Assembly (NCBI GenBank): GCA_963708135.1
Contig: OY970192.1
Span: 736,001 to 800,000 of the forward strand
Direction: 5' to 3'
Length of the DNA stretch: 64,000 nt
Source: an uncultured Gemmatimonadales bacterium
GTDB taxonomy: Bacteria; Gemmatimonadota; Gemmatimonadetes; Longimicrobiales; RSA9
A program made the translations under genes and the position numbers. Of this stretch, positions 2,555 through 55,377 are shown in pieces. The notes beneath the pieces are model-generated. The model worked only from the letters and a program-made list of their open reading frames with translations. It made no database searches and was not told the DNA's origin. How positions within the stretch are numbered: position 1 is the stretch's first letter; every line of letters starts with the position of its first letter.

Positions 2555-4210
2555 CTACTCTGCCCGGCCTGGCGGCCTGAACCGCCGGGACTGGCGCTCG
2601 TACGCATGCGCGAATGCCAGCACCCGGGCGTCCGTTCCTGGAAGGCCCACCACCGACAGATTCAGCGCCGGCATGCCGTCCGCGCCGTAGCCGGCGGGGA
2701 CCGAGACCTCGGGGATCCCCAGCCAGTTGCCGTAGCCGAGCGGGGTGTGCATGTCCGGCCAGCCGCCGGCGAGGGTGAAGGCGGGGAAGGGCATGGTCGG
2801 GTAGACCATCGCGGCGACGCCGGCCGCCCGCATGGACGCCGCGAGCGCGCTCAGCACGTCGGCGCGCGAGCGGGCGAAGGACTGCCCGGCCGGATCCGTC
2901 GCCATCGGGTTCTGGAGCAGGGGCTCGCAGCCATCGAAGGTGGCGGGGAGCACATCGTAGTAGGACTGGTAGGCGGCGTACCCGCGGCGCACGGCCGCGC
3001 GCGGGTCCGTCGTGCGCCCGGCGAAGTAGAGGTAGAGCGCGTTGGCGGTCGGCGCGGGAGACTTGGGATCGGGGGCGACGTCGCCTCGCCGGTTCGCGGC
3101 GGCGGCGAAGGCGTCGCGGTAGTCCGCGAGGGTGACGGCGGGCGCGAACGGCTCGACGGTGGCGCCGGCGGCGCGCAGGTCGGCCACGGCGCGGTCCCAG
3201 ATGGCGACGGCCTCGGCGGACATCTGGTCGCGCGGGATGTGGGCCTCGACGATGCCGAGACGGACCCCGGAAAGCGCGTCGTCGCGTAGCGTGAAAAGGG
3301 GTGCGGGATCGAACGGCTGCGTGCGCGCGAGCGGGTCCGAGGGGTCGGGGCCGGCGACGGCGGCGAGCAGCAGGGCGGCGTCCGCCACGTGGCGCGCGAG
3401 CGGGCCGTGCGTGTCGAGGTAGGGCCAGGTCGGGATCACGCCCGTGCGCGGGACGAGGCCGAACGTCGGCTTCATGCCGACGATGCCGGTGAACTGGGCC
3501 GGGATTCGGTTCGACCCGCCGTCGTCGGTGCCGAGGGCGGCGAATGCCATGCCGTCGGAGACCGCCACGGCCGAGCCGGCGCTCGAGCCGCCGGGCGTGC
3601 GCGTGCCGGTGGGGTCGTGCGGGTTCAGCACCTGGCCGGAGTAGGTGCTTGTGCCGACGCCGTGGTAGGCGAAGTCGTCGGCCGCGGTCTTCCCGAGCAC
3701 GACGGCGCCGGCCGCGCGCAGGCGACGGACCTCGATCGAGTCGCGGCGCACGGGATCGGGGAAGAGGCGCGCCCACTCGGCATTCGAGCCGGTCGTGGGC
3801 AGCCCGTTCACGTCGTAGATGGCCTTGGGGAAGACCGGCACGCCGTCGAGGGGGCCGCGCACCCTTCCGGCGCGCAGCCGTTCGTCGGCAGCGCGGGCAT
3901 CGGCGAGGGCGGCGGTGGCCGCGAGGGCGTCGATGGCGCGCCAGCGGCTGCCGTCGCCGCGGCAGCGGACGAGCGCCCGCTCGGTGACCTCGGCGGCCGA
4001 CCAGTCGCCGCGGCGACGGCCGGCCTGGTAGTCGGCGATGGTGCCGACGAGGGGATCGTCGCCGGCGGCGCGGGGCGGCCGATCGGAGCCAGGGCCGACA
4101 TCGGGGTCGGCGGACGGATCGGCGCCGGCCGCGACGCCGGAGTGCGGCAGCCGTGGCAGCACGGCGAGGGCGGCGAGCCGGGCCAGGACTTCACGTCGGG
4201 TCGGAGACAT
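2555..4210 (-). CDS. Amidase-signature family protein with Tat-like signal
   Basis: GPLDGVPVFPK, PGGSSAGSA, GTDDGGSNRIPA, GMKPTFG; N-terminus MSPTRREVLARL. Confidence 0.9.
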   Translation of the reverse strand: MSPTRREVLARLAALAVLPRLPHSGVAAGADPSADPDVGPGSDRPPRAAGDDPLVGTIADYQAGRRRGDWSAAEVTERALVRCRGDGSRWRAIDALAATAALADARAADERLRAGRVRGPLDGVPVFPKAIYDVNGLPTTGSNAEWARLFPDPVRRDSIEVRRLRAAGAVVLGKTAADDFAYHGVGTSTYSGQVLNPHDPTGTRTPGGSSAGSAVAVSDGMAFAALGTDDGGSNRIPAQFTGIVGMKPTFGLVPRTGVIPTWPYLDTHGPLARHVADAALLLAAVAGPDPSDPLARTQPFDPAPLFTLRDDALSGVRLGIVEAHIPRDQMSAEAVAIWDRAVADLRAAGATVEPFAPAVTLADYRDAFAAAANRRGDVAPDPKSPAPTANALYLYFAGRTTDPRAAVRRGYAAYQSYYDVLPATFDGCEPLLQNPMATDPAGQSFARSRADVLSALAASMRAAGVAAMVYPTMPFPAFTLAGGWPDMHTPLGYGNWLGIPEVSVPAGYGADGMPALNLSVVGLPGTDARVLAFAHAYERQSRRFRPPGRAE

Positions 4211-4233
4211 CTCGCGGGCGGGTCGGGGTGAGC

Positions 4234-4890
4234 TCAGCGCGGCGGGTGGCCGGTCACGCTGAAGTTGGTGGACGGCTGCGCCGGCGTCTCGCGGCGGGCG
4301 CTCAGGCAGAGCCACGCGGCCGGCGCGGCCTCGGCCGGCGGGACGACGGCGAACCTGATCGCGCGCAGCTCGAGGATCCGGAGCGTCGGCTCGAGCGCCT
4401 CGACCACCTCGCGGGCCGAGCGGCGGGGCGGCCCGGTCTCCCGTGGGCCGCCTTCGGTCGAGCCGATGAGGCTGAGCCAGGCACCGTCGGCAGCGAGCAC
4501 GTCAGCGACGCGCCGGGCGAACGCGGCGCGCTCCGTCGCCTGATCGAAGGTGTGGAAGCAGCCGCGGTCGAAGACGAGGTCGAACGGCGGCTCATCGAGC
4601 GTATCCTCGAGGAAATCGGCGGCGGCGAAGCGGCACGCGACGCCCGCGCGGTCGCGGCGCTCCTCGGCGCGCGCGATCGCCGCCGGCGACACGTCGAGGC
4701 CCAGCACGTCCGCGCCCTGGCGCGCGAGCCAGACGGAGTTCGTGCCCGTGCCGCAGCCGACCTCCAGCACGCGCGGACCGCCCACCCGGCCGCTCCGCCA
4801 TAGCTCGACCAGGTGGCGGTCGGGCTCGCCGGTATCCCAGGGAAGCGCCTCGCCCGACGTGTACCGCTCGTTCCAGTGAGAATCGTCCAT
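4234..4890 (-). CDS. Class I SAM-dependent methyltransferase (TPMT/TehB-like)
   Basis: WNERY..LPWD, VLEVGCGTG, GLDVS, FDLVFDRGCFH. Confidence 0.9.
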   Translation of the reverse strand: MDDSHWNERYTSGEALPWDTGEPDRHLVELWRSGRVGGPRVLEVGCGTGTNSVWLARQGADVLGLDVSPAAIARAEERRDRAGVACRFAAADFLEDTLDEPPFDLVFDRGCFHTFDQATERAAFARRVADVLAADGAWLSLIGSTEGGPRETGPPRRSAREVVEALEPTLRILELRAIRFAVVPPAEAAPAAWLCLSARRETPAQPSTNFSVTGHPPR

Positions 4891-4973
4891 GGCGCCACAA
4901 TACGAGGACGAAGGGTTCGCCGCGAGGGGACCGCGTCGATGCGCAGCCTGTTGCCTCACCTGCGCGCGGCCCG

Positions 4974-5129
4974 ATGCCGGGCTGTGTCCGTCGGGCCCGA
5001 TGCGCTGTCGTGGCGCTGATCCTCGCGTTGGGCTCCGGCGCAGGGGTACACGCCGCGCAGGCGAAGGTCCAGGCGCAGGTGGCGCGATACCCGGGTCGCG
5101 TGGTGGGCGCGTGCAGCGTGAACCCGCTG
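4974..5129 (+). pseudogene. Possible remnant of a secreted amidohydrolase gene
   Basis: Signal-peptide-like stretch then AKVQAQVARYPGRVVGACSVNPL, resembling the amidohydrolase_2 motif QVARYPDRL.GFCSVNPL; similarity then stops. Confidence 0.4.
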
Positions 5130-5244
5130 GGCCGGGGCGCACGGGACGCTCGGGCGGGGTCGCCCGGGCGGGCCGAGGGACGCGTGTGGGCCGGGCGGCG
5201 CCGTGGGCGGGAGGCAGCGCGCGCACCGGGTCGGACGGTGTCGC

Positions 5245-5429
5245 GGGCGGACCAAACTCCCAGATCGCCGAAGGGGCCGAAGCGCCCTTGCAGAAATGGC
5301 CGCTATGCGGACCAAAGTCCCGTCGCGCTGGTGATGGCGGCGAACGCGAGGGGACTTTGGTCCGCTCGGCGGCCCAAACTGCGAGAGGGCTGCCGAGGGG
5401 GCGACGATCGTGCAGAAAGGTCCGGGCGC
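5245..5429 (+). repeat. ~185-bp palindromic dispersed element, copy A
   Basis: Aligns with 6842-7026 and the reverse complement of 55193-55377; inverted-repeat arms 5298-5327 / 5345-5374. Confidence 0.95.
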
Positions 5430-5499
5430 CGCCTAAGGCAGCGACGCGACCGCTCCGCTCCCCCTGCGCGGCCGAGGGCCCCATCCACGAAATCTCGTC

Positions 5500-5563
5500 C
5501 CATCCCGCCATGGAACTGTCCCATCCCGCCATGGAGCTGCCCCGTCTCGCCATGGAGCTGCCC
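5500..5563. repeat. 21-bp degenerate tandem repeat (CCATCCCGCCATGGA(A/G)CTG(T/C)C) x3
   Basis: Read directly between copy A and the DUF559 gene. Confidence 0.85.
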
Positions 5564-5639
5564 CAGACGGCGACGCAGGGTAGACGCGTGGTGGGCTGTG
5601 GCAGGCACGAGGAGGGGCACCGGAGCGAGGATACTCTCC

Positions 5640-6545
5640 ATGGACACGGAACTGGAGCGTCGCCTGTGGGAGCTGGCAGCGCGGCAGCACGGGGTAGTGG
5701 CTCGCGGGCAGATGCTGGAGCTCGGCATGCGACCGGGCGCGATCGGACGGCGGGCGCGGCGCGGCGGGCTGCGTCGCCTGCACAGGGGTGTGTACCAGGT
5801 GGGGCCGGTGCTTGCGCCGTCGGGGCGGCTGCTCGCCGCGACGCTGGCGTGCGGTCGACAGGGGATCGTGGCCGACTGGAGCGCCGCCGTCGTCTGGCGC
5901 GTGCGCGAAGGGTCCGACGGCGAGCCCGTCCACATCCTGCTCGTGGGCGGCGGCGGGCGGAGCCGCCCGGGGATCCGGGTGCGACGCGTCCGCCGGCTCG
6001 ACCCCGACGAGCGCACGTGCGTGGACGGCATTCCCGTGACGACGCCGGCGCGGACCCTGCTCGACCTCGCCGCGGTCGCCGGGGCGGGCGAGCTGGAGCG
6101 CGCCGTCGCCAGGGCCGAGCGTGAGCGGCTCGTGAGCCGCGACCAGCTGCGGGCGATGCTGCTTCGGGGCGCCGGCCGGCCGGGAGCGCCGGCGCTCAGG
6201 GCCCTGCTGTCGCAGGCCGGCGGCCCGGCGCTGACGCGCTCGGAGGCGGAGGCGCTGTTCCTGAAGCTGATCCGGGAAGCGTCGCTGCCGCTCCCCGAGA
6301 CGAACGTGGTCGTCGGCGGCTACGAGCTCGACTTCCTCTGGCGCAAGCAGCGGATCGCCGTCGAGGTGGACGGCTACCGCTACCACGGCACGCGACGTCG
6401 CTTCGAGGCCGACCGTCGCCGCGCGACCCGCCTGGCGGCGCTCGGGATCCAGGTCATCCCGGTCACGTACCGGCAGATCGTCGAGCAGAGAACCGCGACG
6501 GCCGTGCAGATCGGGAATGCGCTGCTGCGGGCGGAGCTGCGGTGA
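5640..6545 (+). CDS. AbiEi-like wHTH N-terminus + DUF559 (Vsr-like PD-(D/E)xK) endonuclease protein
   Basis: LAARQHGVVARGQMLELG, RLHRGVY, GIPVTTPARTLLDLA, TRSEAE, ELDFLW..IAVEVDGYRYH..FEADRRR. Confidence 0.85.
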   Translation: MDTELERRLWELAARQHGVVARGQMLELGMRPGAIGRRARRGGLRRLHRGVYQVGPVLAPSGRLLAATLACGRQGIVADWSAAVVWRVREGSDGEPVHILLVGGGGRSRPGIRVRRVRRLDPDERTCVDGIPVTTPARTLLDLAAVAGAGELERAVARAERERLVSRDQLRAMLLRGAGRPGAPALRALLSQAGGPALTRSEAEALFLKLIREASLPLPETNVVVGGYELDFLWRKQRIAVEVDGYRYHGTRRRFEADRRRATRLAALGIQVIPVTYRQIVEQRTATAVQIGNALLRAELR

Positions 6546-6580
6546 ACGGAGAACGCGGGGTGGAGGGGGGCGGACCGGCG

Positions 6581-6809
6581 CGGACCGGAGCCGACCGGAG
6601 GGACGCCGCGGGGAGGACCGGGCCGTGCGGCGTCGCGAAGCGGGCCGGGGCCGACCGGAGCGGACCGGAGCCGACCGGAGGGACGCCGCGGGGAGGACCG
6701 GGCCGTGCGGCGTCGCGAAGCGGGCCGGGGCCGACCGGAGCGGACCGGAGCCGAACGGAGGGACGCCGCGGGGAGGACCGGGCCGTGCGGCGTCGCGAAG
6801 CGGGCCGGG
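6581..6809. repeat. 80-bp tandem repeat x~2.9
   Basis: Units start at 6581, 6661, 6741 (CGGACCGGAGCCGACCGGAGGGACGCCGCGGGGAGG...), near-identical. Confidence 0.95.
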
Positions 6810-6841
6810 ACACGTGGCGGAGCCGGATCGAAGGCGTCGCG

Positions 6842-7026
6842 GGGCGGACCAAACTCCCACATCGTCGAGGCGCGCGCGGCGCGGCCGCAGAAGTGGCCGC
6901 TATGCGGACCAAAGTCCCCTCGCGTTCGCCGCCACAACCGGCGCGAGGGGACTTTGGTCCGCATAGCGGCCTAAACTGCGAGAGGGCTGCCGAGGGGGCG
7001 ACGATCGTGCAGAAAGGTCCGGGCGC
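6842..7026 (+). repeat. ~185-bp palindromic dispersed element, copy B
   Basis: Perfect 30-bp inverted repeat 6895-6924 / 6942-6971; last 54 bp identical to copy A. Confidence 0.95.
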
Positions 7027-7073
7027 GGCCGCCTCGACGTGCCCAGGCGACGGCTCGCGGCGGGCCAGCCGTG

Positions 7074-7228
7074 GATGGACCGGCCCCCGCGGATGGACCG
7101 GCCGCCGCGGATGCACCGGCCAGCGGCGGATCCACCGGCCGGCCGCGGATCCACCGGCCGGCCGCGGATCCACCGGCCGGTCGCGGATGCACCGGCCGAC
7201 CGCGGATGCACCGGCCGCGCGCGGATGC
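7074..7228. repeat. ~19-bp degenerate tandem repeat GGAT(G/C)CACCGGCCGGCCGC x~8
   Basis: Read directly. Confidence 0.85.
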
Positions 7229-7254
7229 GGCCGCCACGGCGGCTCGCGCCTTCC

Positions 7255-9489
7255 TCACCGTCCCTCACCCGCCGCGTAGCCGCCGGCCAGATCCCGATAC
7301 GCCCGCACCAGCTCCAGGAACCCGTGCCGGTAGCCGTCCCCGTCCTCGCCCAGACCCGCCCGGGCGAGGGCCAGCACCTGGTCGGCGGTGATGGAGCCGC
7401 GGTGCTCGGAGTGGCGGAGCAGCATGCCGAAGCCGGCGACGGCGGCGGCGAAGCGGAAGTCGGCGGACGGCCGCCCCGGCGCGGCGGCGACGCGGGAGCC
7501 CGAGCCGACGCGGGAGCCCGAGCCGACGCGGGAGCCCGAGCCGACGCGGGAGCCCGAGCCGCCCCCGGGAAACTCCACCGAGCCGTCCCGCGACGCCTCG
7601 CCCGCGACGTCGCGGATGCCGCGCGTCATGAGGCGGCTCGTCGTCCCGTGCGGCGCCTTGTAGCGCACCTTCACGAACGCCAGCTCGCGGCCGCCGCTCG
7701 GGTCGGCGAGGCGGCCGGGGGCGCGGTAGCGGAGCGGGTCCACCGGCGCGGGAACCGCGGTGGAGTCGGGGCAGGCGGCGTCGCGCCCGGAGGCGGCGTC
7801 GTGCCCGGAGGCGGAATCGCGCCCGGAGGCGGCGTCGTGCCCGGAGGCGGAATCGCGCCCGGAGGCCGCGTCGCGCCCCGCGGCCGCGTCGTGGCCGCAG
7901 GCCACATCGTCGCCGGAGGCGCCATCGTCGCCTGAGAGGGTGAGCTCGTAGAGCGCCGTCACGGTGTGCCCGGCGCCGAGCTCCCCCGCGTCCTTCCTGT
8001 CGTTGTTGAAGTCCTCCGGCGCGAGCAGGCGGTCCTCGTAGCCGAGCAGGCGATAGCTCCGCACGCGCGCGGGGTTGAACTCGACCTGGACCTTCACGTC
8101 CTTCGCGACGGTGACGAGCGTCGCGCCCATCTGGGCGACGAGGACCTTACGGGCTTCCTGCAGGCCGTCGATGTAGGCGTAGTTGCCGTTCCCGTACCTG
8201 GCGAGCTGCTCCATCTTCTCGTTCTGCAGGTTGCCGGTGCCGAAGCCGAGGACGGTCAGGAAGGTGCCGCCTTCGCGCTCCCGCTCGATGAGGCGGACCA
8301 TGGCGGCATCGCTCGACTCGCCGACGTTGAAATCGCCGTCGGTGGCGAGGATGACGCGGTTGTTGCCGCGGGGGTCGAAGCTCCTCCGCGCCACCTCGTA
8401 GGCCAGCCGCAGCCCCTCGCCGCCAGCGGTCGAGCCGCCCGCCTGCAGACGCTCGATAGCCTCCATGATGAGGTCCTTCCGGTCGCCGGGGGTGGGCCCC
8501 AGGACGAGGCCGGCCGCGCCCGCGTAGACGACGATGGCCACGCGGTCCACGGCCCGGAGCTGCGCGACGAGCAGCCGCAGCGACGCCTTCACCAGCGGCA
8601 GCTTGTCGGGCTCGTCCATGGAGCCGGAGACGTCGAGCAGGAAGACCAGGTTGGCGGGCGGCAGGTCGCTCGTGGCGATCGGGCGGCTGGCCAAGCCGAT
8701 GCGGAGCAGCCGGTGCTTCGGCGTCCAGGGCGCGCGGCCCACCTCGGTGGTGATGGCCACCGGGTCGTCGCCTCGCGGGGTCGGGTAGTCGTACGGGAAG
8801 TAGTTGACCAGCTCCTCGATGCGCACGGCGTCGACGGGCGGCAGCCGATGCTCGCGCAGCAGGAAGCGACGCACGTTGCTGTACGAGGCGGGGTCCACGT
8901 CGATCGCGAAGGTCGAGAGCGGGTGGTCGGCGACGGCGCGGAAGCCGTTCTCCTCGATGTGCCCGTACTGCTCGCGGTCCACTGGCGGCCGGTACCAACC
9001 CGCCGCGTCCCGGCGCACGCCGCCCGTTGCCGTCTGCGCGTACATCGGTGAAGGCGACGGCGCGGCCGCGACCGCCCGTCCCGCCGCCGACATCGCCGCG
9101 TCCGTCACCACCAGCTCGTTGAGCGACACCGTCGTCTGCCGGAGCCGGAAATCGGCGGTCACGGAATCCGCCGCCGCGCCGGACGGCACCCGCACCACCA
9201 GGCGCGCCTCGTTGTAGCCGAGCAGCGTCGCCACCAGCGTGAGCCGGCCCGAGGCGACGTCGCCGCGCGGCACCTCCAGCGCGTACCGCCCGCCCGCGTC
9301 CGAGAGCGCGCCGGCGCGGGTGCCGGCGACGTGGATCTGCGCCCCCGCGAGCGGGCTGCCGTCACTCGCGCGGACGACCCGCCCGCTCACGCGCACCGCC
9401 TCGCCCGCGGGCCGGGCGAGGGCGAGGGAGGTGGCGGCGAGAAGGGCGGCCAGGGGGAGGGAGAGGATCGAGCGTCGGGTGCGTCGCAT
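7255..9489 (-). CDS. YfbK-like vWA domain protein (carboxypeptidase-regulatory-like N-terminus, vWF_A, DUF3520)
   Basis: PLSTFAIDVDPASYSNVRR, RIEELVNYFPY, MIDAS DVSGSM, ILATDGDFNVG, DFRFAAAVAGFGMLLR; signal peptide; GGAGG RBS. Confidence 0.9.
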   Translation of the reverse strand: MRRTRRSILSLPLAALLAATSLALARPAGEAVRVSGRVVRASDGSPLAGAQIHVAGTRAGALSDAGGRYALEVPRGDVASGRLTLVATLLGYNEARLVVRVPSGAAADSVTADFRLRQTTVSLNELVVTDAAMSAAGRAVAAAPSPSPMYAQTATGGVRRDAAGWYRPPVDREQYGHIEENGFRAVADHPLSTFAIDVDPASYSNVRRFLLREHRLPPVDAVRIEELVNYFPYDYPTPRGDDPVAITTEVGRAPWTPKHRLLRIGLASRPIATSDLPPANLVFLLDVSGSMDEPDKLPLVKASLRLLVAQLRAVDRVAIVVYAGAAGLVLGPTPGDRKDLIMEAIERLQAGGSTAGGEGLRLAYEVARRSFDPRGNNRVILATDGDFNVGESSDAAMVRLIEREREGGTFLTVLGFGTGNLQNEKMEQLARYGNGNYAYIDGLQEARKVLVAQMGATLVTVAKDVKVQVEFNPARVRSYRLLGYEDRLLAPEDFNNDRKDAGELGAGHTVTALYELTLSGDDGASGDDVACGHDAAAGRDAASGRDSASGHDAASGRDSASGHDAASGRDAACPDSTAVPAPVDPLRYRAPGRLADPSGGRELAFVKVRYKAPHGTTSRLMTRGIRDVAGEASRDGSVEFPGGGSGSRVGSGSRVGSGSRVGSGSRVAAAPGRPSADFRFAAAVAGFGMLLRHSEHRGSITADQVLALARAGLGEDGDGYRHGFLELVRAYRDLAGGYAAGEGR

Positions 9490-9556
9490 GGGGTCCTCCT
9501 CGCGTGCTCGGGATGTGCGCAGGCGGCCGGGCAGCCGGGCGTCCGGTCTCGAGCGG

Positions 9557-9585
9557 TACGACGAACGAGGAGGGAGGATTTGCAC
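9557..9585 (-). promoter_or_regulatory. Putative ECF-sigma promoter upstream of the vWA gene
   Basis: Minus strand GTGCAA-N14-TTCGTCG, same motif and spacing as at 10725-10753. Confidence 0.6.
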
Positions 9586-9665: not shown

Positions 9666-10526
9666 TCAGCCCGGCGAGGTCAGGAACGCGGCGGCGTGCT
9701 CGGTGGCCCACTCGCGGAACGTCCGCGCGGGGGTGCCGGTGACCTGCTCGATGGTGTGCGTGACGTAGGCGGGCTGCCCGAGCGCGGCGCCCCACGCCCC
9801 CAGCAGCATGCCGGCGACGGCGGGCGGCATGCCCAGCCCGGTCAGCGCCTCCTCGGGCGACATCTCCTCGAAGCGCAGCGTCGTCCGCCCGATGACCTCG
9901 CCGATCGTGCGCACCTGCGCCGCCTGGGTCAGGGAGGCGGGTCCGGTGAGCACGTAGTCGGCACCGGCGTGGGCGTCGTCCGAGAGCGCGCGCACGGCGA
10001 CGTCGGCAACGTCGCGCTCATGGACGGGCGCGGTCTCCGCCGCCCCGTACGGCCAGTGGACGACGTCGCCCGCGCGGATCTGCGGCGCCCACCAGAACAG
10101 CGCGTTCGAGGCGAACATGCCGGGGCGCAGGATCGTCCAAGCCACCCCCGAGGAGGCGACGAGATCGTCCAGCTGCGCGTGCACGGCCCGCAAGGCGTTC
10201 GGCTGCTGGAAGAACGGGTGCGCCGTGCGGTGAGGCGAGGAGAGGAGCACGATGCGCCGTGCGCGCGCGGCCATGCGGGCCACGACATCGGGCGCGGTGG
10301 CCGGCGGCGCGGCCCAGACGAGGAAGACCGCATCCACGTCGTCGAGGGCGGCCTCCAGCGACTCCGGCACCGTGAGATCCGCCGCGACGAGCTCGACGCC
10401 GGCAGGCAGCCGCGCGGCGGCCGGGTCGCGCGTGAGCCCACGCACCTCCGCTCCGGCCGCGAGCAGCCCCGCGACCACCTGGCGCCCGACTCGGCCGGTG
10501 GCGCCCGTGACGAGGACACGATTCAT
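9666..10526 (-). CDS. NmrA-like NAD(P)H-binding protein
   Basis: VLVTGATGRVG Rossmann motif, WTILRPGMFASN, VHERDVA. Confidence 0.9.
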   Translation of the reverse strand: MNRVLVTGATGRVGRQVVAGLLAAGAEVRGLTRDPAAARLPAGVELVAADLTVPESLEAALDDVDAVFLVWAAPPATAPDVVARMAARARRIVLLSSPHRTAHPFFQQPNALRAVHAQLDDLVASSGVAWTILRPGMFASNALFWWAPQIRAGDVVHWPYGAAETAPVHERDVADVAVRALSDDAHAGADYVLTGPASLTQAAQVRTIGEVIGRTTLRFEEMSPEEALTGLGMPPAVAGMLLGAWGAALGQPAYVTHTIEQVTGTPARTFREWATEHAAAFLTSPG

Positions 10527-10724
10527 GTGGGCCGGCTCCGGTGCGGGAGATCATTGCCTCGCATGCGCGAATATACTCCGCCTCGTGCGCGAGCGGGTGG
10601 GAACCCCATGCGGGAGGCACGTCACGCTGTTCCGAAGGTGAGGCCGCCGCCGGAGCAGAGAGAAGGCGGGATGGACAACGCAGGCGTCGCCGGAGGCAGG
10701 GTACTAGCTTCCGGACGGACCCTT

Positions 10725-10753
10725 GTGCAACTCACCGCCACTGATTCGTCGAA
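10725..10753 (+). promoter_or_regulatory. Putative autoregulatory ECF promoter
   Basis: GTGCAAC..CGTCGAA, ECF-type -35 AAC / -10 CGT, ending 5 nt before ATG 10759. Confidence 0.6.
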
Positions 10754-10758
10754 AGCGC

Positions 10759-11328
10759 ATGAAGCGACCACGGCTGGGCGTGGGGGACCGGAGCGGCGCT
10801 CCCGGAACCGCGAGGCGGGGCCGGACGGACTGGGCGTCGGTGTACCGCGCCGTCTACCCGGAGGTCGTGCGCTTCCTCGGCTGGATGCTGTGGGACGAGG
10901 AGCGGGCGAAGGACCTGGCGCAGGAGGCGTTCGCGCGCGTGCTGGACAAGGACGCCGACAACCCGCGCGGCCTCGTCTTCCGCACGGCGGCCAACCTGGC
11001 GCGTGACGAGGCGAGGACCATTGTCAGGCGACGTCGCCACCTGAAGCTCCTGCGCGTCGAGGAGGACGTCCGGGCCGAGCACGCCGCGACGCCCGCCGAG
11101 GGGCTCGAGGCGAGGGAGCGCGACGCGCGGCTGCGGCGGGCGCTGGAGTCGCTCACGGAGCGCGACCGGCAGGTGCTGCTCCTCTGGAACGCCGGCTTCG
11201 ACTACACGGAGATCGCCGAGCAGACGGGCCTCGCCAAGGGCGCCATCGGCACCACCGTGGCCCGCGCGAAGAAGAAACTCGTGAGCGCGCATGACGCGCT
11301 GGAGGCGACCGATGCGGCACTTGGATGA
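10759..11328 (+). CDS. ECF RNA polymerase sigma factor
   Basis: DLAQEAF region 2; LTERDRQVLLL..GFDYTEIAEQTG..GAIGTTVARAKKKL region 4. Confidence 0.92.
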   Translation: MKRPRLGVGDRSGAPGTARRGRTDWASVYRAVYPEVVRFLGWMLWDEERAKDLAQEAFARVLDKDADNPRGLVFRTAANLARDEARTIVRRRRHLKLLRVEEDVRAEHAATPAEGLEARERDARLRRALESLTERDRQVLLLWNAGFDYTEIAEQTGLAKGAIGTTVARAKKKLVSAHDALEATDAALG

Positions 11329-55192: not shown

Positions 55193-55377
55193 ACACGCGG
55201 ACCTTTCTGCGCGTTCGTCGCCTCGCTGTCGGCGCTCTCGCACTTTCAGCCGCCCAGCGGACCAAAGTCACCGCACGTCGCCCCCGCCGCCGACCGCGAC
55301 GGGACTCTGGTCCGCATAGCGGCCATTTCCGCGGCTGCGACTCCGCGCCCTCGACGATCTGTGAGTTTGGTCCGCCC
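55193..55377 (-). repeat. ~185-bp palindromic dispersed element, copy C (solo, diverged)
   Basis: Reverse complement reads GGGCGGACCAAACTC..GAAATGGCCGCTATGCGGACCAGAGTCCCGTCGCG-N17-..GACTTTGGTCCGC..GCAGAAAGGTCCG, colinear with copies A and B. Confidence 0.9.

Follow-up and report, generated by a model that had tools for sequence, protein, structure and literature searches.

In REP/REPIN-RAYT systems (REPtrons), a single nuclease-type gene, coding for a Y1 HUH transposase, is flanked by inverted copies of a short palindromic repeat of 20-40 nt; the same repeat is dispersed intergenically in hundreds of copies, and each gene lineage has a repeat family of its own. The AbiEi antitoxin, the partner of the AbiEii nucleotidyltransferase in type IV AbiE systems, autoregulates, binding inverted repeats at its operator. 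MITEs and Correia-, ERIC- and BIME-type repeats are short, non-coding, palindromic intergenic families, dispersed at moderate copy number. Homing endonucleases spread by way of break repair, from genes that are free-standing, lie in an intron or intein, or split a unique site. The EDxHD members, such as I-Bth0305I (3R3P), have an N-terminal DNA-binding region of the NUMOD/HTH type followed by a C-terminal nuclease with the E-D-x-H-D catalytic motif, as defined in PMC3239194.

The locus analysed here lies in a 64,000-nt window (contig OY970192.1, positions 736,001-800,000) of a 5.45-Mb Gemmatimonadaceae genome. An AbiEi-like/DUF559 gene coding for 301 aa (5640-6545, + strand) stands between two elements of a repeat that we call family A. 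The first-pass annotation described these as two direct, equal-length copies, and both were recovered at 5245-5429 and 6842-7026, each 185 nt, 83% identical (BLASTN E 3e-50) and in the same orientation as the gene. The shared repeat begins about 19 nt farther 5', from 5226 and 6823, and the elements were placed at 5226-5429 (+; 185 bits with covariance model R1) and 6823-7030 (+; 173.6 bits). Direct reading of both copies confirmed the identical 54-nt 3' end, identity being 89% in the 3' half and 77% in the 5' half. The palindrome with 30-nt arms and a 17-nt spacer, annotated for both, is perfect in the downstream copy and carries mismatches in the upstream copy, a composite quasi-palindrome. 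Each copy forms one long hairpin that folds far better than shuffles (z -5.5 and -6.2 for copy 1 as RNA on the + and - strands, respectively; z -8.1 for copy 2 as DNA). The recurring GCGGACCAAA-type motifs were also found, three in top-strand and one in bottom-strand orientation, and about six ~10-nt GGACCAAA-type motifs per element alternate in orientation. Three tandem repeats accompany the elements on the + strand: a 21-nt unit repeated three times (5499-5578) in the spacer immediately 5' of the start codon, an 80-nt unit repeated about three times (6554-6809) from the stop codon towards the downstream element, and a 19-nt unit repeated about nine times (7069-7236) just beyond that element, ahead of the stop codon of a vWA gene at 7255.

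The neighbouring genes were assigned by Pfam to an amidase, a methyltransferase and a vWA/YfbK protein. The codon-position GC profile places the start of the methyltransferase gene at 4890 and not at 5553, and both elements are therefore intergenic. In agreement with the earlier annotation, no transposase, integrase or AbiEii gene was found among the neighbouring ORFs tested by Pfam, one of which (9696-11006) had no Pfam match. A scan of 5150-7300 for sigma-70 promoters and terminators, which is not informative for this phylum, returned none. The only sequencing data found to contain the locus were from a soil metagenome (short low-depth contigs, share of words 0.21), and none were from RNA; three runs showed no joint across the gene, which is uninformative in either direction.

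The protein consists of an AbiEi-like winged-helix DNA-binding module in the N-terminal ~195 aa and a DUF559/EDxHD endonuclease of the Vsr fold in the C-terminal ~100 aa. Pfam matches were obtained to AbiEi_4 (PF13338; 30.4 bits against a cut-off of 25) and DUF559 (PF04480; 28.9 bits against 20.6), and a match of the same ORF to MTES_1575 lay below the family cut-off. E204, D231, E242, D244, H249 and D258 are invariant across 16 homologues; judged from the alignment, E204, D231, D244, H249 and D258 would constitute the E-D-x-H-D motif, all of whose residues are present. Profile matches in the PDB included 3HRL (E 2e-6) and 3R3P (E 6e-4). The AF2 model of the 301-aa protein (pLDDT 88) matched 6Y8Q, 1ZEL, 3R3P and 3HRL in Foldseek, with Vsr (1CW0) also listed; TM(target) was 0.79-0.80 to the catalytic domain of I-Bth0305I and 0.80 to 3HRL. 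The homodimer prediction scored 0.15 against a mark of 0.42. The protein thus shares with the EDxHD homing endonucleases the catalytic fold, the complete motif and the order of the two domains. It differs from them in that its N-terminal module is AbiEi-like instead of NUMOD/HTH, that the gene lies outside any intron or intein, and that the presumed target is a multicopy repeat; the gene has a complete copy on either side, where a homing gene would split a unique site.

Foldseek superposed the N-terminal 195 aa on the AbiEi antitoxin (6Y8Q, E 3e-5) and Rv2827c (1ZEL), but in contrast to type IV AbiE no AbiEii nucleotidyltransferase toxin gene is adjacent, and a nuclease domain is fused instead. 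This superposition, together with the autoregulation of AbiEi through inverted repeats, could suggest a resident protein that serves in regulation or genome maintenance: its AbiEi-like module would bind the motifs at about 19 sites, among them the promoter and terminator regions of its own gene, and its nuclease would process hairpins or cruciforms there, with nothing mobile. The conservation of the element's motif blocks across copies and genera, and of its ~185-nt length in all genera carrying family A, would also fit such a factor. However, it offers no reason for each paralogue to be bracketed by a repeat family of its own, and leaves unexplained both the package in unrelated contexts of congeneric species and the difference between a solo and an occupied state at one site, described below. 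In addition, one paralogue has an in-frame stop and relatives carry broken copies, as is usual for dispensable selfish genes. We consider a purely resident role quite unlikely.

Across the genome, nhmmer detected only 19 full-length family-A copies and one half copy, though short terminal matches may be missed. The first-pass annotation had asked for the copies to be counted and for their co-location with DUF559 genes; only 2 of the 19 are gene-linked. The other 17, including a solo copy in the window (55193-55377, - strand; 150.5 bits), are not beside any DUF559 gene; their neighbours are unrelated housekeeping genes, and no trace of a DUF559 gene was detected, which counts against a gene-carrying cassette. 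The family-A copies are old: their mean identity is 68%, with almost no indels, and the conserved columns group into motif blocks, to a degree matched by 60 of 5000 shuffles. The upstream copy is the nearest of the 19 to the leave-one-out family consensus (85.4%), and the gene-linked copies rank first and joint third by this closeness, which counts in favour of a cassette.

These dispersed copies can also be explained as MITE- or REP-like repeats moved by another enzyme or by recombination, with DUF559 genes and repeats merely piling up in permissive, repeat-rich pockets, and the cross-genus package being an old, vertically inherited locus that was later rearranged. Consistent with this, most copies are solo and beside unrelated genes, five are clustered within 67 kb, and a DDE transposase gene is 110 nt away from one solo copy. 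The genome is generally repeat-rich, too, 51 of 150 control genes having a dispersed repeat in one flank, which likewise speaks against a cassette, and most homologues in relatives lack flanking repeats. Terminal inverted repeats as in MITEs are present (5' CGGACC pairs with 3' GGTCCG), the whole element being quasi-palindromic. Nevertheless, nhmmer over the genome, which gave the full-length copies and the half copy, found no parent IS with matching ends, and no consistent target-site duplication was seen at the 19 copies. The old, almost indel-free copies with conserved motif blocks also distinguish family A from MITEs and other small palindromic repeats. The lack of a target-site duplication, which extends to the two cassettes found in relatives (genomes G070 and G073), in turn counts against a cassette. 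As argued below, the distribution of repeats around the paralogues and the boundaries of the package in relatives do not fit independent repeats well, and we regard that explanation as unlikely.

The earlier suggestion of a nuclease-plus-repeat system stood as to the link between gene and repeat, but neither as a REPtron in the strict sense nor as a system with a structured RNA partner. The resemblance to REPtrons lies in a single nuclease-type gene that has a short palindromic repeat on both sides, in the intergenic dispersal of the same repeat and in one repeat family per gene lineage. However, the nuclease here combines a Vsr-fold EDxHD domain with an AbiEi-like module instead of being a Y1 HUH transposase, the flanking copies are direct (both + strand in the window) rather than inverted, each element is a composite of 185 nt, and copies number in the tens (19) and not in the hundreds. 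A search for the RAYT/Y1 HUH transposase (PF01797) gave no matches genome-wide and was positive in 6 of 14 control genomes; a genome without a RAYT also argues against a REP-like origin of the copies. An RNA encoded by the element and acting as the partner of the nuclease would be in line with the strong predicted folds on either strand and the conserved element length. Yet Rfam, at E up to 1, returned only two chance-level matches, with E 0.13 and 0.26 and scores short of the gathering thresholds, RNAalifold at its defaults recovered no more than fragments of a consensus structure, and covariation was not significant, with 81.3% of cells paired against 80.2% in shuffles and 29 cells changed on both sides against 23 (29 or more in 41 of 500 shuffles). 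G-U and A-C mismatches were balanced (64 against 61). Orientation relative to the neighbouring genes was unbiased, solo copies between co-directional flanking genes being co-oriented with them at five sites and opposed at six. With no RAYT, target-site duplication, strand bias or significant covariation, the element is therefore neither a REPtron repeat nor an RNA gene, and we consider an RNA partner highly improbable.

The association between gene and repeat extends to the paralogues. Same-strand repeats scoring 60 bits or more bracket four of the seven in the genome, and those scoring 100 bits or more bracket three; the corresponding numbers for random 900-bp segments were 10 and 5 of 400. 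Every bracketed paralogue has a repeat of its own, namely family A (185 nt), family B (~230 nt, with one copy upstream and three downstream of the paralogue), family C (~350 nt, 89% identical) and arrays of a 61-nt unit, and the first three families also have dispersed solo copies. Only 2 of the 150 control genes, all from genome G000, were bracketed by a direct repeat; four bracketed paralogues are thus hard to obtain by chance, and the enrichment of repeats at DUF559 genes anticipated by the first-pass annotation was borne out. Four repeat families around four paralogues of one gene family are not expected if the repeats moved independently of the gene. Furthermore, dispersed repeats lie within 700 nt on both sides of six of the seven paralogues, compared with 10 of the 150 control genes. 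Against a cassette, a flanking direct repeat is absent at three of the seven paralogues, and the palindrome of family C was not significant (z -1.25), so that 'palindromic' does not apply to every one of the repeat families.

AbiEi-domain/DUF559 proteins were found in 52 of 73 Gemmatimonadaceae genomes searched, three of them unpublished, with at most seven matches per genome; they are currently annotated as antitoxin-like or unknown. BLASTN of the element against 40 relatives returned nothing, and a covariance model was needed to detect it there; a scan with a 28-nt pattern gave two records in genome contigs and none in metagenome contigs. Among 62 homologue loci scanned for family A beside the gene (56 from relatives and the six other paralogues of the genome), it was present only in four genomes of three genera, on both sides of the gene in G073 and G070 and on one side in G067 and G012. 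The possibility that orthologues lack flanking elements, which would have spoken against a system, was thus not borne out. All eight gene-adjacent elements, those of the window included, are co-oriented with the gene. In a quick unrooted tree, from which the partial rows L110 and L138 were left out, the four placeable family-A-linked rows, again including the window, fall in one clade of six rows (SH-aLRT 95). Gene-adjacent family A is thus specific to one gene clade and always co-oriented, which is at odds with MITE- or REP-like repeats that merely accumulate near the gene. Other homologues have different flanking repeats: those of loci L107, L118, L127 and L130 showed no BLASTN similarity to families A, B or C or to the 61-nt arrays.

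Part of the distribution in relatives counts against a cassette. In the clade members from G071 and G072, family-A elements were not detected beside the gene, and 50 of the 56 homologue loci in relatives had no flanking repeat that reached 60 bits; on one side, the flank was shorter than 400 nt at no fewer than 9 of the 56. Genome G004 has six elements, none of which shares a contig with a DUF559 homologue.

The package has discrete boundaries. Between G070 and G073, which belong to the same genus, identity is 76% over 1620 nt, exactly from outer element end to outer element end, the shared element-gene-element stretch measuring about 1.58 kb, and outside the cassette it is at the random level (0.29-0.38); this stop of homology at the outer element ends also argues against an old inherited locus with independently moving repeats. 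By ORF-wise tblastn, the genes upstream of the cassette in G073 bear no relation to its neighbours in the window. Furthermore, one site with a shared right flank (90% identical) is occupied by a solo element in G004, a third species, and by the full cassette in G070; in G072 both flanks (86% identical) enclose the gene but no elements. Another solo element of G004 lies 880 nt beyond the point where synteny with G070 stops and therefore allows no comparison of filled and empty states. At the window's own locus, vWA orthologues were found in 19 of 72 relatives, including the unpublished G076; in the eight of them that were compared, vWA is followed by neither the methyltransferase nor the amidase gene. 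In the five relatives that carry the element, a vWA orthologue is absent and the amidase is represented by paralogues only.

Considering these results, we propose the following scenario, to which we give an even chance. Positions 5226-7030 may constitute a selfish nuclease cassette of ~1.8 kb, consisting of one gene between two co-oriented, cognate 185-bp elements, with 17 solo elements elsewhere in the genome. On this best reading, the flanking repeats would serve both as recognition sites and as homology arms, and binding, cleavage and mobility are inferred. The winged-helix module may recognise the ~10-nt GGACCAAA-type motifs in the element, and the nuclease would then cut at or near it. 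With the cassette's two flanking elements acting as homology arms, recombinational repair by the host could copy the gene into the broken solo element, which would become element-gene-element; recombination between the flanking copies would delete the gene and leave a solo element. Such spread by break repair would follow the homing principle of free-standing homing endonuclease genes. As an analogy only, solo LTRs are similar in that direct repeats surround a coding unit and recombination between them could yield many solo copies, but reverse transcriptase, integrase and target duplication are lacking here. The nuclease alone is an insufficient explanation for the arrival of solo elements at new loci, which counts against the cassette.

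The recurrence of the package in other genera, and of other repeats around sister genes, points to an undescribed selfish nuclease-and-repeat element, and no printed report of DUF559 genes bracketed by palindromic repeats was found. Tentatively, and with more doubt than confidence, AbiEi-like/DUF559 (EDxHD) nucleases and lineage-specific structured repeats might make up a class of selfish bacterial elements, widespread and undescribed, that spreads within genomes by 'repeat-targeted homing', in which the nuclease breaks its own dispersed repeat, repair from the bracketing repeats inserts the gene, and recombination between these regenerates solo repeats. If true, this class would provide a function for a very large 'unknown' protein family and an origin for some intergenic repeat families. 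If the tie between nuclease and repeat is specific, AbiEi-domain/DUF559 proteins would gain a biology as a selfish homing-type cassette, and certain families of dispersed intergenic repeats, together with certain breaks in synteny, would be explained. It would also represent a second, mechanistically different partnership of a nuclease with a repeat, of which RAYT/REP is the known example so far.

The two copies of the 185-nt quasi-palindromic element (family A) that bracket the AbiEi-like/DUF559 gene lie on the same strand, at 5245-5429 (upstream) and 6842-7026 (downstream), and are equal in length at 185 nt each, as the first-pass annotation had it. They are 83% identical (BLASTN E 3e-50), with 89% identity in the 3′ half and 77% in the 5′ half, and direct comparison confirmed that their final 54 nt are identical; the repeat reaches approximately 19 nt further 5′ than the 185-nt core. 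The palindrome of 30-nt arms and a 17-nt spacer ascribed to the element is perfect in the downstream copy but mismatched at its equivalent in the upstream copy. Both copies are predicted to fold into a single long hairpin on either strand, far above shuffled sequence (z of -5.5 and -6.2 for the two strands as RNA and -8.1 as DNA). The 301-aa ORF between them (5640-6545) matched AbiEi_4 and DUF559, both above Pfam cut-offs, upholding the gene identity originally assigned, and Pfam placed a methyltransferase, an amidase and a vWA/YfbK protein around this element-gene-element cassette. The long methyltransferase ORF (4234-5553, minus strand) was over-called: the codon-position GC profile set the start at 4890 rather than 5553, giving a gene of approximately 218 aa, and the coding-type GC3/GC2 signature and the Pfam domains both begin near the ATG at 4890. 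The entire package thus lies within a 2.36-kb intergenic interval. Three short tandem arrays occur within the cassette and just beyond it (21 nt x3 at 5499-5578, 80 nt x~3 at 6554-6809, and 19 nt x~9 at 7069-7236), and tandem arrays are likewise found beside other DUF559 paralogues, in units of 52 and 61 nt, and beside other solo family-A copies, which have no DUF559 gene. The vWA/YfbK gene (7255-9585, minus strand) carries in its 3′ part a perfect 18-nt x4 repeat (7488-7559), corresponding to a 6-residue protein repeat.

Six residues of the protein, E204, D231, E242, D244, H249, and D258, were invariant in sixteen homologues, whose profile matched 3HRL, a DUF559 structure (E 2e-6), and 3R3P, the structure of the homing endonuclease I-Bth0305I (E 6e-4). 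Foldseek told apart two regions of the AlphaFold model (pLDDT 88): residues ~1-195 matched the AbiEi antitoxin 6Y8Q (E 3e-5) and Rv2827c (1ZEL), and the C-terminal ~100 residues matched 3R3P and 3HRL (TM about 0.8), with Vsr lower in the list. I-Bth0305I is a homing endonuclease of the Vsr fold whose N-terminal region binds DNA, as described in a paper that also defines the EDxHD motif (PMC3239194), and Vsr, DUF559, and 3R3P were placed in one clade in a survey (PMC3424549). By modelled fold and motif, the predicted nuclease belongs with the EDxHD homing endonucleases.

The genome holding the window (G000), a single contig of 5.45 Mb with 72% G+C, carries seven paralogues of the DUF559 protein (44-56% identical; one is interrupted by an in-frame TGA), and the link between gene and repeat was tested by comparing the upstream with the downstream flank of every paralogue. 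A ~230-nt repeat flanks the second paralogue (genome 4909846-4910742), once upstream and three times in tandem downstream (cassette G000:C1:4909533-4911525); a ~350-nt repeat, its copies 89% identical, flanks the third (3162607-3163494; cassette G000:C1:3162148-3164059); and the fourth (3189628-3190524) has arrays of a 61-nt unit on both sides (cassette G000:C1:3189156-3191155). These repeats are distinct sequence families, and the ~230-nt and ~350-nt repeats also occur as dispersed solo copies. The ~230-nt unit and the 3′ end of the 185-nt element have a common word, GTGCAGAAA, followed by a C/G-rich run. Two of the paralogues without bracketing repeats are preceded upstream by members of other abundant dispersed families (G000:C1:3379099-3379479 and 1680827-1681157), with ~27 and ~13 distant loci, respectively. 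A dispersed repeat was present in at least one flank of 51 of 150 control genes; G000 is generally repeat-rich, and the argument therefore rests on two-sided and same-family measures. Same-strand flanking repeats of at least 60 bits were found at 4/7 DUF559 paralogues, compared with 10/400 random 900-bp segments and 2/150 control genes, and those of at least 100 bits at 3/7, 5/400, and 2/150, respectively; dispersed repeats (<=700 nt) on both sides were found at 6/7 paralogues versus 10/150 control genes. With this repeat-rich background on one side and the two-sided figures on the other, coincidence in repeat-rich pockets plus vertical descent appears a rather unlikely explanation. The nuclease-plus-repeat system proposed from the sequence is partly supported. 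Only the window's paralogue lies near family A, and 17 of the 19 family-A elements are elsewhere.

BLASTN, nhmmer, and the covariance model agreed on 19 full-length family-A copies and one adjacent half copy in G000, including a third in the window, a solo copy at 55193-55377 (minus strand), 48 kb from the cassette. Pairwise identity averaged 68% (range 54-98%) with almost no indels, and 61 of 192 alignment columns were at least 90% conserved and grouped in motif blocks, a clustering reached by 60 of 5000 shuffles. According to cross-genus comparison, the element repeats a ~10-nt motif about six times, with the orientation alternating (GGACCAAA in the window's genome and GACCCAAA in another genus), a layout that can be read from sequence as three ~60-nt hairpin units or one long hairpin. 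Of the 19 copies, at least 15 are plainly intergenic and the remaining four overlap only weak or 5′-over-extended ORF calls; their neighbours are unrelated housekeeping genes, and no consistent target-site duplication was seen around the 19 copies. Five copies cluster within 67 kb (genome 724663-791377) and three within 27 kb (5074111-5101180). A role of the protein as a resident regulator or maintenance factor is unlikely. Tandem doublets without a gene between the copies occur at G000:C1:2865828-2866292 (period 280 nt, copies 98% identical) and in another genome at L048 (G067:C112) 3749-4359, with copies ~275 nt apart. The 2.6-kb stretch G000:C1:5090579-5093149 resembles a pocket of repeat or mobile DNA: it contains a DDE_Tnp_1 transposase gene together with one family-A element (5092453-5092637) and a weak 350-nt-family copy (5093042-5093149).

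The suggestion that the element is a structured RNA partner of the nuclease found no support. An Rfam search of the element returned nothing, and the long-hairpin structure was 81.3% paired versus 80.2% in column shuffles. In the covariation check, 29 cells were changed on both sides against 23 expected, a value reached by 41 of 500 shuffles, and hairpin mismatches were balanced (G-U 64, A-C 61), as was orientation between co-directional genes, with five sites along the gene direction and six against it. An RNA partner is thus highly improbable, and family A, as judged from its sequence, is a DNA-level palindromic repeat rather than a demonstrable RNA.

BLASTN of the element gave no match in 40 relatives. 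The covariance model with strict filters detected copies of unchanged length in four of 72 other Gemmatimonadaceae genomes (G066, G067, G004, and G073), and laxer settings added copies in loci of G070 and G012. The layout of the window's cassette, with co-oriented copies on both sides of a homologue, recurs in G073 (54% identical protein) and G070. In G067, the closest homologue (74% identical over residues 92-301) has a co-oriented element 94 nt after the gene, its upstream flank being cut by the contig end, and in G012 a broken homologue is followed by a co-oriented element 248 nt on; all eight gene-adjacent elements (8/8) point with the gene. The covariance-model scan of 62 homologue loci detected family A at no locus beyond these four. 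A quick maximum-likelihood tree of 61 rows, which left out two partial rows including G012, grouped the four element-bearing rows in one clade of six (SH-aLRT 95); the remaining two members, from G071 and G072, are without the element. Other homologues (G047, G048, G012, and G009) have flanking direct repeats of other sequence families. Flanking direct repeats were found at 6 of 56 distinct homologue loci of relatives at >=60 bits and 4 of 56 at >=100 bits, at least nine of the 56 having <400 nt of flank on one side. The association of gene and flanking repeat is enriched, yet far from universal.

Within one genus, the G070 and G073 loci are 76% identical over 1620 nt, and the alignment starts and stops at the outer ends of the two elements. 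Windowed identity was 0.65-0.95 in the elements, 0.62-0.93 in the gene, and 0.15-0.53 in the two inner spacers, and was random (0.29-0.38) outside the elements. No target-site duplication was seen around either cassette, and the upstream neighbours in G073 match remote regions of G000 instead of the genes next to the window's cassette. Flanks of the G070 cassette also occur in two other congeners: in G072, both are 86% identical around a gene that is only 71% identical and lacks elements, and in G004, the right flank (90% identical) leads into a solo element, beyond which the sequence is unrelated. One site thus exists in occupied, element-less, and solo states, with the break in synteny at the element. 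In the G004 locus L046 (G004:C1:8000-18500), two co-oriented solo elements (2828-3012 and 7295-7489) bracket a 4.3-kb block, of which 3.2 kb is syntenic with the G070 cassette's right flank; ordinary genes, too, can thus lie between element pairs.

Considering these results, the best reading, held at about even confidence, is that of a selfish cassette in which a nuclease gene is flanked by its cognate repeats. The nuclease may act by repeat-targeted homing, through putative binding, cleavage, and copying, which would explain the two whole direct copies around the gene, and recombination between the flanking repeats may regenerate solo copies, which would explain their large number. This mechanism would also explain why one site is found both solo and occupied and why the gene-linked copies lie nearest the family-A consensus (rank 1 and joint 3 of 19), and gene conversion would yield the identical 3′ ends; it leaves the arrival of solo elements at new sites without account. 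The cassette resembles a REPtron, as the first-pass annotation proposed, in pairing a nuclease gene with its own dispersed palindromic repeat, but it is not one: the genome has no RAYT, the two flanking repeats run in direct orientation, and the enzyme has a different fold. Unlike EDxHD homing endonuclease genes, the window's DUF559 gene lies outside an intron or intein. Among the papers listed on DUF559, I-Bth0305I, Vsr-like nucleases with repeats, and Gemmatimonadetes MITEs, supplements aside, no DUF559-repeat association was found. The cassette may well be, with the chances near balance, a nuclease-plus-repeat selfish element.
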